Shown: positions 15,001 to 18,000 of the stretch, piece by piece
How the letters are laid out: each line of letters starts with the position of its first letter
Numbering within the stretch: the first letter of the stretch is position 1
Assembly: GCA_947085205.1 (NCBI GenBank)
Contig: CAMTVO010000033.1
Span: forward strand, 1 to 20,668
Source: an uncultured Nitrospiraceae bacterium
Lineage (GTDB): Bacteria; Nitrospirota; Thermodesulfovibrionia; Thermodesulfovibrionales; Dissulfurispiraceae
Reading direction: 5' to 3'
Length of the DNA: 20,668 nucleotides
Position numbers: made by a program

Positions 15001-18000
15001 TGATAAAATAAGACATGAGCGAATATTCAAATTTTAGCTCTGAAAATAATGTCGAGCTTATCTGCCCTGCATGCGGCTCTGTTCTTACGGAACATGAACG
15101 CACCGAGGGAGGCTGGAACTGCAAATGCGGAGATTTTATTCCAGAAGGCATAGCGATAAATCCTTATAAGGGATTATCTAACCAGCACAAGCAGAATTCG
15201 CCATGGAGATGACCCCTATCCCTTAGATGGAATACAGGAATTTCTTTTATTCTTAGACGCTTCTATCTTTCTTTAAATCCTTTCCATATTATATAATTCA
15301 ACAATAGTGGGCTTTTTTCATGACATAAGAAGAGATTTACATGCTGTTTTTGAGCGCGACCCTGCCGCGCGGAATGTGGCGGAGGTTATACTTGCATATC
15401 CGGGCTTTCATGCCATTTTTATGCACAGAATAAATCATGTTTTGTGGAGACTTAAAATTCCGGTCATTCCGAGGCTTTTGTCCCATATTGCACGGTTTCT
15501 CACAGGCATAGAAATACACCCTGCAGCAAAGATTGGAACTGGTTTCTTCATAGACCACGGGATGGGCGTTGTGATAGGCGAGACAACAGAGATAGGCGAA
15601 GATGTGTTGCTGTATCAGGGCGTTACATTGGGCGGTACTGGAAAGGAAAAGGGAAAGAGGCATCCGACTTTGGGAAACCATGTTGTTGTAGGCGCTGGCG
15701 CAAAAATCCTAGGGCCTATAAAGATCGGCGATTATGCTAAGGTAGGTGCGAACTCTGTTGTTCTAAAATCAGTCCCTGACCATTCAGTAGTTGTCGGTGT
15801 GCCCGGAAAGATTATCAAGAAAAAGGTTATGCGCATTGAGCAGGAAGGGCTTGTTGAGGCGCTTGACCATGTAAGGCTTCCGGACCCTGTGGAAGAGGAA
15901 ATCCATGAGCTTAAAGAGCATATAGTGAGACTTGAAAGCAGAATAGAGAGATTGGAAGGCAAAGGAGAGAGGATGAAGATATTCAATACGATGACTGCCA
16001 GGAAAGAGGATTTCGTCCCGATTTTAAAAGACAAGGTTGGAATTTACGCATGCGGCGTCACTGTATATGACTACTGCCATATAGGACATGCAAGGAGCGC
16101 AGTGGTTTTTGATGTTATAAGCAGATACTTACGATACAAGGGATTTAATGTCAAATTCGTAAGGAACTTTACTGACATTGATGACAAGATAATCAAAAGG
16201 GCCAATGAAGAAGGCATCTCATGGGATGCTATTGCCCAAAAATATATTAATGCGTATTACGAAGACATGGACAAGCTCGGCATTGCAAGGGCAGATGTAG
16301 AGCCAAAGGCAACGGAACATATAAAGGAGATGATTGATGTAATCAGTGCGCTTATTAAGAAAGGTTATGCCTATGCTGTTCAGGAAGGAGAGAACCAGAG
16401 CGTTTATTTCTCGGTTGATAAATTTTCCGAATACGCAAAGCTGTCCAAGAAAGGCATGAAGGATTTGCTCGCGGGAGCGCGCGTTGATGTGGATGAAAGG
16501 AAAAAGAATCCTATGGACTTTGCCCTGTGGAAGGCTTCAAAGGAAGGAGAGCCCTGGTGGAAAAGCCCCTGGGGAAAGGGCAGGCCCGGCTGGCATATCG
16601 AGTGCACTGCAATGGCGATAAAGCATCTTGGCGAATCCATCGATATACACGGAGGCGGTGCAGACCTCATCTTCCCGCACCATGAAAACGAGATTGCGCA
16701 GTCAGAGGCATTCACAGGAAAGCCCTTTGCAAAATACTGGGTGCATAACGGCTTTATTACCATAGATAAGGAGAAGATGTCCAAGTCCCTCGGAAACTTT
16801 TTCACCATCAGAGAAATTTTGGATAAATACGATGCCGAGGTTATCAGGCTCTTCCTGCTTTCGAGCCATTACCGTAGTCCGATAGAGTTTTCCAATGAAC
16901 AACTGCATGATGCAGAAGCATCGTTGGAAAGGTATTACAGCACAATAGCAAGGATTGATGATTTTCTGTCCCATGTTCCTGAGACCACAAAAAAAGTACA
17001 GACAGCAGAACTTGAAGCCACTCTCGAAAAATTCAAGAGCAGGTTTGAAGAGGCAATGGATGACGATTTTAATACAGCGCTGGCAATCGGGCATATATTT
17101 GAGCTTGTGAGAGAGGTGAATAAATTCCTTGATTCAAAGCCTTCTGGAGAAACAGCAAATGCATTGATAAAGAGGGCAAGGAATATATTCACAACTGTTG
17201 GCGAAGTCCTTAATCTCTTTAACAGGACGCCTGCCCGGTGGAATATTGATTTGCTCAAGATTAAGGAGATTCCACTTTTAGAGTCAGACATAGGAGCCAA
17301 AATTGAGGAAAGGCGTATTGCAAGGCAGGACAAGGACTGGGCAAAGGCGGACTCCATCAGAAAAGAGCTTGAAGAAAAGGGGATAATCCTTGAGGACAAA
17401 AGGGATGGGACATCGTGGAAGGTGAAGATTATCTGAGGATAAGGAGCTCTTAATCCACCAACATTTCTTTGATAACAGCCTTTACTTTTTTGATTTCAGC
17501 CGGAGTGATTCTGTCCAGATGCTTGACGAGCCGCCGTCTGTCAACAGTCCTTATCTGGTCGAGGACTATCCAACCCTTTTTGTTCTGAAACATCACGGCT
17601 ACTCTTGTAGGGTATTCATGGGATTTGGTGGTCATGGGAGCTATGATTGCCGTTTGGATATTCCTGTTTATTTCATCAGGCGAGATAACAACGCATGGCC
17701 GTGTTTTCCTGATTTCATGGCCGATAACAGGATCGAGATTAACGAGGTAGACTTCGTATTGGGTTATTTCCATTCCCAATCCTTTATCTCTGAATCCATG
17801 TAGTCGTCTACGAGAAGCTCATCTTCATGCCGTTCGTGCATTAGCCTGAAGGCATTGTCCCATCCCTGCCTCGGCATTGTTTTGACGGGCTTTAAGACTA
17901 TCATGTTTTTTTTCACTTCGAGGGTTACTTCATTTTCGATGTGGCACTGCTTTAATATTGTCATCGGTATTCTTATCCCTTTTGAGTTGCCTATTGATAC

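Follow-up and report, generated by a model that had tools for sequence, protein, structure and literature searches.

A conserved cysE–cysS gene fusion of Thermodesulfovibrionia with a predicted internal start for free cysteinyl-tRNA synthetase

Main

The open reading frame at positions 15307–17436 (forward strand) in the genome of an uncultured Nitrospiraceae bacterium encodes a 709-residue protein that is a real and conserved fusion of two known enzymes, serine O-acetyltransferase (CysE) and cysteinyl-tRNA synthetase (CysRS). The fused gene appears to be new as a combination, both of its enzymes being known. It is probably a nested gene with two products, in which one mRNA with a short leader would give a trimeric CysE–CysRS protein as well as free CysRS. 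Positions are those of the window, which is the whole stretch of 20,668 nucleotides that was analysed (contig CAMTVO010000033.1 of assembly GCA_947085205.1).

No published work on a CysE–CysRS fusion was found by title or abstract, in a literature search with most subscription journals outside its range, and the fusion thus appears to be undescribed, as the first-pass annotation of this DNA had supposed. A survey of 39,897 CysE sequences (PMC13040420) makes no mention of fusion, fused or ‘nitrospir’, and neither does one of its supplements. Term searches likewise returned no mention of fusion in a review of aminoacyl-tRNA synthetases (PMC7373986), and none of CysE or acetyltransferase in two papers on cysteine encoding (PMC8762117 and PMC5424206).

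The fused gene

Beginning with a GTG codon that has no Shine–Dalgarno sequence before it, and running without an internal stop, the frame matches two NCBIfam models above their cut-offs: TIGR01172 (cysE) at residues 7–168, over model positions 1–162 of 162 (247.5 bits against a cut-off of 210.65), and TIGR00435 (cysS) at residues 223–706 (596.7 bits against a cut-off of 340). The EpsC model NF041874 is likewise above cut-off on the CysE half. The Pfam domains of the 709-residue protein are SATase_N (6–37), Hexapep (119–153), tRNA-synt_1e (237–537), DALR_2 and CysS_C, the last two representing the anticodon-binding part of the CysRS half. The description of a single frame with a complete CysE and a complete CysRS therefore stands; the E-values for the two models are one order of magnitude weaker than had been noted.

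Searches with tblastn and with profiles find one copy of cysE and one of cysS in the genome, in agreement with the earlier claim that these are the only ones, where ‘only’ refers to the assembled part (1.89 Mb in 65 contigs, 89.7% complete). Also present are a single tRNA-Cys, dsrA, which is likely to be a source of sulfide, and, on another contig (C11), a gene for CysK (443.7 bits against a cut-off of 350.95). Located 3′ of the fused gene are a mazEF pair on the other strand, rlmB, four tRNAs and tuf.

The fused frame is no assembly error, because the junction is found intact in contigs of other runs. One of these, from the same study, covers the junction region 15613–16026 with 0 differences; another, from a different study and a related strain, spans 15593–16985 and so crosses the junction. 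The fused gene is also found in the named species Dissulfurispira thermophila, which is cultured (JZK55_06030, 710 aa). In RNA run X8, which contains a related strain at a share of 0.11, contigs touch both halves of the gene and stop 29 nt past the junction. These contigs are too short at the junction to show one transcript or a start.

Catalytic domains

The CysE core (residues 1–168; 15307–15810, forward strand) is composed of a helical domain and a left-handed β-helix. It is of the short type: residue 10 aligns to residue 80 of Haemophilus influenzae CysE (PDB 1SSQ), and the N-terminal four helices are absent. Residues H84, E69, D18, D83, R118 and H119 align to H154, D139, D88, D153, R188 and H189 of the H. 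influenzae enzyme, which we take to be the catalytic histidine with its acidic partners and the serine-binding residues. Conservation was assessed in 82 fused loci, chosen for family spread (16 families) from genomes with long frames, a set that describes fused genes and not their frequency; a genome with a TAG inside cysS (G339) was excluded from the counts of codon and residue conservation and from the CysRS tree. H84, R118 and H119 are found in 81/81 fused loci and E69 in 80/81. A His/Asp dyad of CysE is described in the part of PMC13040420 that deals with it, and the sections of the same survey on the truncated CysE isoform of Staphylococcus aureus and Mycobacterium tuberculosis describe a lack of the first ~75 residues of the E. 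coli type, which the present CysE half shares.

The CysRS half (residues 223–709; 15973–17436, forward strand; 487 aa if its start is ATG 15973) matches E. coli CysRS at full length from E. coli residue 2, with a fold match to the E. coli structures 1LI5/1U0B at a TM of 0.89 over the target. The four zinc ligands (C249, C433, H458 and E462, in 81/81 fused loci) and the HIGH (258–261) and KMSKS (490–494) motifs are kept, as in this class I enzyme; in contrast to E. coli CysRS, the present protein carries an N-terminal CysE of 222 residues and in its long form would be a trimer. The dN/dS ratio of the CysE core, at ~0.03–0.12, is similar to that of the CysRS catalytic domain (nine close pairs), indicating purifying selection on both halves. 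As far as sequence can tell, both halves look active.

Among 15 genomes that we picked, CysK is above cut-off in 4/4 other fused and 2/2 split genomes, in 2/2 genomes with a longer acetyltransferase beside it, and in 1/7 genomes without any serine acetyltransferase match.

The CysE tail and the trimer

Joining the two enzymes, according to the first-pass annotation, is a charged helical linker of ~45 residues. The region opens (residues 169–193; 15811–15885, forward strand) with a basic KKKxxR stretch and a possible hairpin carrying G181 and E184 (residues 174–185, in one model, at a pLDDT under ~50), followed by the DH..PD of an ordinary tail. After it comes a tail helix (residues 194–216; 15886–15954, forward strand), present in both structure models. 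Because stand-alone CysE proteins, both in this phylum and in Bacillota, have this DH..PDP and helix at their end, the ‘linker’ is mainly the native C-terminal tail of a short CysE. The region connecting CysE with CysRS has a pLDDT mostly <50 in both models, and it is still disordered in a second fold computed with 132 sequences.

The tail helix is predicted to form the three-helix coiled coil of a CysE trimer. A trimer model of residues 1–226 scores 0.93, against 0.00 for the best control, on a scale whose mark is reached by 20/30 solved pairs and 1/23 single chains; the pLDDT of the partners is at least 81, the runs agree in 91% of contacts, and the model resembles solved CysE trimers and is to be read as a likeness to them. 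With the same resemblance to solved trimers, it places heptad contacts at residues 195, 199, 202, 206, 209, 213 and 216 and lets E69 touch H84 of the neighbouring subunit. A trimer with helical tails coiling together is likewise predicted for S. aureus CysE, and the prediction is shared with the truncated isoform as presented in the sections of PMC13040420 devoted to it. Unlike in that isoform, the tail here continues into CysRS, has no terminal Ile and is preceded by an extra segment with G181 and E184.

It had also been proposed that the fusion buries a C-terminal tail that plugs CysK. A CysE ending in Ile is found in 1/24 unfused cases in the phylum and in 1/22 split cases outside it; the short CysE of S. 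aureus and M. tuberculosis do end in Ile, according to the same sections of PMC13040420. Because the tails of unfused relatives so rarely end in the CysK-binding Ile, the ancestral tail probably carried no plug to bury. The tail of the fused CysE is internal, and so lacks the free C-terminal Ile of a cysteine synthase complex.

Of the bifunctional coupling that had been read into the gene, a conserved fusion with two halves that both look active is upheld. Both activities lie on one chain and in one pathway, as channelling would have it, with the fusion passing the CysE product on to CysRS. The product of CysE, however, is O-acetylserine and the substrate of CysRS is cysteine; direct channelling was rejected because CysK acts between the two steps, which are therefore not consecutive, and CysK is encoded elsewhere, on contig C11. 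CysK is in turn unlikely to dock in its known manner on a tail that has no free end and whose relatives rarely end in Ile. We consider channelling very improbable.

Distribution and origin of the fusion

In the order Thermodesulfovibrionales, to which genomes were assigned from the names of matches, cysE is above cut-off in 142/201 genomes. The gene is fused in 137 of them, truly split in four (all of one genus, g15) and unassignable in one, where it lies at a contig end. Of the fused genes, 133 are in frames of 614–870 aa and the other four run fused through the junction before a contig end or an N gap truncates them. A fusion widespread in the order, as first annotated, is thereby confirmed, and so is the lack of cysE in family f10 (above cut-off in 0/21 genomes). 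In other orders of the class 7/7 genomes examined are fused, one of them with a TAG inside cysS. For the rest of the phylum, no frame of fusion length is present among the matches listed, a further 84 matches lying outside them, and 20/20 loci read are unfused.

The 120 matches listed of 1296 homologues are all 705–800 aa long with both sets of Pfam domains, and the names among them are those reported before, ‘cysteine--tRNA ligase’, ‘cysteinyl-tRNA synthetase’ and ‘hypothetical protein’. Of the 150 best representatives, clustered at 50% identity, a single cluster is a full-length fusion, and eight long CysRS matches contain no CysE domain.

Outside the phylum, all 22 cysE–cysS neighbours among the 80 matches kept of at least 589 are split, and those 22 loci hold no independent fusion. 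In 13/22 of these pairs, found by a search that favours in-frame cases, an in-frame stop lies 3–9 nt 5′ of the cysS ATG, and the ribosome-binding site of cysS often falls inside the last cysE codons. A split pair with an in-frame stop just before cysS would represent the precursor state, one change from fusion. The cysE–cysS (cysES) operon of Bacillota was reportedly described by Gagnon in 1994. The fused gene has in common with it, as seen in the 22 split loci, the gene order, the short CysE with DH..PDP and a helical tail, and a ribosome-binding site of cysS that falls within the end of cysE, and rlmB lies downstream of both; here, in contrast, there is one open frame and not two genes.

In CysRS trees the class forms one clade (SH-aLRT 98), with its unfused members nested among fused ones. 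Monophyly of the fused genes by themselves is rejected (p-AU of 6.3e-5), and strong branches force at least five changes; one of the tree tests used 51 of 133 rows. Most simply, the fusion would have arisen once and been re-split once, and cysE would have been lost at least four times, the unfused members being taken as losses because they are nested among fused ones. Lineages that dropped cysE retain cysS from the position of the internal start described below, as 26 stand-alone cysS genes of the class, 20 of which have rlmB in the flank retrieved. Genomes without cysE often keep a TATAAT box 33–45 nt 5′ of cysS, and in two of them the box, a purine-rich site and the old ATG spacing all survive within 45 nt; those two loci look like the scar of a clean cysE deletion. 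In 3/4 re-split genomes, cysE ends on a TGA that overlaps the internal ATG.

The internal start

At the junction, which reads AAA GGA GAG AGG ATG, the in-frame ATG 15973 coincides with position 1 of the CysRS model. Located 5 nt 5′ of it is a Shine–Dalgarno-like site, AAAGGAG (15961–15967, forward strand), formed by codons K219–G220–E221. A start codon is present at the CysRS boundary in 75/82 fused loci (ATG 64, GTG 5, TTG 6, other 7). Where the boundary residue is Val it is encoded by GTG in 5/6 loci (gene usage 21–33%), and where it is Leu by TTG in 6/7, in family f5 (usage 5–13%). At the same position, outgroup CysRS genes have ATG/GTG in 2/21 and encode mostly Leu or Ile.

Upstream of the boundary, Gly220 is encoded by GGA in 49/55 loci, which places it at the top of the 56 Gly columns (median 21%) and of the 179 fourfold columns; Gly221 ranks second, at 65%, in the same comparison. 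When each family contributes one pick, GGA is found in 11.5/13, compared with its share of 0.23 in the gene; between families, fourfold sites have reached saturation (identity 0.30). Pairing with a consensus anti-Shine–Dalgarno sequence, which may not be that of the host as the 3′ end of the 16S gene was not found in the assembly, is stronger at the internal site than at the cysE start in 80/81 loci (means of −10.9 against −0.5 kcal/mol), and the internal site is the best among the in-frame ATGs in 58/82. Much of this strength follows from the K-G-G-R residues. When the seven upstream codons were shuffled synonymously, gene by gene, p was ≤0.05 in 3/82 loci and 0.49 in the present genome. Internal sites are weak in families f3, f4 and part of f5, families f14 and f16 have a start codon at the boundary in 0/5 loci, and RNA structure around the two starts is unremarkable (z of −0.32 and −0.19).

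The second start is likely to be used in the present genome and in most families, and was probably lost in some. Were the full-length fusion alone made, the Met codon and the purine-rich stretch would be leftovers or a pause of the ribosome between domains, as the mostly non-significant shuffles, the families without a start codon (f14 and f16) and the weak sites of f3 and f4 would allow. A pause needs no start codon, however, yet Val and Leu at the boundary are encoded by GTG and TTG much more often than gene usage would give; with synonymous sites saturated between families, nothing but a relic would have decayed there; and that cysS repeatedly survived when cysE was lost is in keeping with a working start. 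We regard a single full-length product as unlikely, and prefer a gene with two.

Overlapping the internal start in 67/82 loci is a stop in the +1 frame, the one used by three re-split genomes, and this could point to programmed frameshifting that makes free CysE, the long frame being incidental to it or an error of assembly. The +1 stop, however, follows from ATG together with Lys or Arg, and 14/43 Arg codons at this place are CGN codons, which remove the stop. As the CGN frequency is close to gene usage, a +1-frame stop selected for frameshifting was rejected, and against an assembly error stand independent contigs and 137 genomes with an open junction. The whole account strikes us as exceedingly improbable.

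Under the preferred reading of two products, the gene would share an in-frame start, a Shine–Dalgarno-like site and raised local synonymous conservation with infB, clpB, mrcB, arcB and rpn, the in-frame internal-start genes dealt with in the relevant portions of bioRxiv 10.1101/520783. It would differ from these in its short product, an essential enzyme in complete form, and in its origin from the fusing of two genes, and start use is here a prediction from sequence.

The first start and promoter

Before the cysE start, which is without a Shine–Dalgarno sequence, is a −10-like box, TATAAT (15292–15297, forward strand; 9 nt 5′ of the GTG), from which a leaderless mRNA or one with a very short leader is predicted. 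An exact TATAAT lies 10–21 nt 5′ of the cysE start in 52/81 fused loci, against 0/20 outgroup cysE genes. Such boxes mark leaderless or short-leader genes, as laid out in the pertinent part of PMC3160421. In this genome, starts that lack a Shine–Dalgarno sequence and stand behind TATAAT are found at 64/1289 long ORFs, against 54/15,265 internal control codons; a start of this kind is thus common in the genome and not special to the fused gene. No promoter was called upstream of the gene by a sigma-70 two-hexamer scan, which gave 4 sites where 7.1 were expected.

Because the −10 box sits directly before the start, there is no room for a leader RNA, and an Rfam scan of the window to an E-value of 1 detected no T-box or other leader RNA, returning tRNAs and two sub-threshold matches only. 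The gene differs in this from the cysES operon of Bacillota, which is often under a cysteine T-box according to the passages of PMC2940859 on that operon.

Maintenance of the link

Of the last eight codons of the tail, an average of 4.6 could become a stop by a single change, and fused genes have junctions of ten different lengths. Despite these available stops, re-splitting is seen in one genus only (137 fused against four split genomes). G181 is present in 95% and E184 in 98% of fused CysE, against 0% and 5% of 20 outgroup CysE and 0/4 re-split ones, a pattern that amounts to a single gain and a single loss. As a motif of fused CysE that is lost on re-splitting, the two residues hint that the link does something, and we consider the link likely to be kept by selection.

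A fixed CysE–CysRS interface left no sign in residue loss, in covariation or in the pLDDT of the connecting region. CysRS residues lost in unfused lineages show no excess (12/235 columns, against 8/243 in the control), and eight of the 50 strongest covarying pairs are inter-domain, against a background of 44%, in a shallow alignment with an effective depth of 68.

The link may instead be a frozen accident, with independent enzymes on a functionless tether, which is compatible with one product or two. The missing interface signal agrees with such an accident, as do a genus that lives re-split and a precursor one change away in 13/22 split pairs, in a search favouring the in-frame state. Set against it are the single re-split lineage, although synonymous sites are saturated and tail stops are one change away, and the tracking of the fused state by G181 and E184. 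We hold an accident to be possible, at somewhat less than even confidence.

If the link is selected, the likeliest reason, which we put forward tentatively and as a guess, is that the attached CysRS adjusts the activity or level of CysE to cysteine demand. CysRS might then be a built-in demand sensor, in which bound cysteine or uncharged tRNA-Cys, or tRNA on the KKKxxR/G181/E184 hairpin, switches the CysE trimer, with free CysRS doing the bulk of charging; this more specific form is rather doubtful. It would do at the protein level what the T-box does for this gene pair in Bacillota, and so replace it.

Discussion

We envisage that an ancestral cysE–cysS pair, with the ribosome-binding site of cysS inside the last cysE codons, lost its intervening stop once, in the ancestor of the class. 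The −10 box just 5′ of the first codon would produce a leaderless or short-leader mRNA, on which the GTG start without a Shine–Dalgarno sequence would give the 709-residue fusion, the sole CysE of the cell. By its β-helix and three-helix coiled coil the fusion is modelled to trimerize, which would put three CysRS domains on each trimer, and the Shine–Dalgarno-led ATG 15973 would give free CysRS of 487 residues, probably the larger share. In the established pathway, CysE would supply O-acetylserine, a separate CysK would turn it with sulfide into cysteine, and CysRS would charge tRNA-Cys, the activities of the present protein being predicted ones. The attached CysRS may tune CysE to the demand for cysteine.

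The transsulfursome (SepRS–SepCysS–SepCysE) likewise joins the synthesis of cysteine physically to the charging of tRNA-Cys, as described in the parts of PMC8762117 and PMC5424206 on that complex. In contrast to the present fusion, its enzymes are unrelated to those found here and its steps are consecutive on the tRNA, whereas the steps of CysE and CysRS are not.

In this gene an enzyme of amino-acid biosynthesis is naturally fused to the synthetase for the same amino acid, an arrangement kept across a class of sulfur-cycling bacteria. It is hidden by the labels ‘cysteine--tRNA ligase’ and ‘hypothetical protein’, so that annotations can miss cysE. If the dual start is true, the gene illustrates how an essential enzyme can become fused and be safely released again: thanks to the internal start, cysE could be dropped in at least four lineages and split off again in one. 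Should the link regulate CysE, amino-acid synthesis would be tied to tRNA charging in a new way that works without an RNA switch.

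Genes flanking the fused cysE-cysS gene

Upstream of cysE is a gene for an AcsV/RACo-like corrinoid reactivation protein (13131–15011, forward strand), which scores 679 bits, below the cut-off of 800. Lying between acsV and cysE is a 65-residue zinc-ribbon-like ORF (15015–15212, forward strand) with weak family matches only; the matching sequence of a related strain lacks this ORF.

An insertion separates cysS from rlmB: a mazE/mazF toxin–antitoxin pair encoded on the reverse strand (17450–18060), opposite to these genes. Because a related strain carries different DNA at this position, the gap looks like a variable slot. 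Further downstream the gene order is ordinary, with a tRNA cluster (Thr-Tyr-Gly-Thr) followed by tuf (18996–20668, forward strand).

CysE and CysRS loci in other genomes

At two loci of family f19 (L124 and L125), CysE stands alone and is lengthened at its C terminus by roughly 200 residues that are charged and of low complexity; its frame stops 5 nt upstream of the aligned cysS start. The fused gene of genome G339 (L136) contains a TAG within the CysRS part that stops the frame at 563 residues, which points to either a sequencing error or a broken gene.

A second CysRS-like match, perhaps an MshC-like paralogue, was detected in 8 of the 30 genomes searched (seven in family f12 and one in f1; for example, L168 and L169). 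These matches are shorter, at about 400 positions, and fall under the cysS cut-off.

In several genomes that have lost the fused CysE, a longer serine acetyltransferase (frames of 314–356 residues) adjoins cysK. Profile searches of family f10 and genus g40 gave no cysE above the cut-off, and the five of these genomes tested have just a weaker CysK/CysM-like match.

Short-leader starts

Across the whole genome carrying the fusion, an exact TATAAT, the −10-like box that also precedes the fused gene, lies 11–20 nt upstream of the start in 64 of 1,289 long ORFs, almost all without a Shine–Dalgarno sequence. From these sequence patterns, short-leader genes seem to be common in this lineage.
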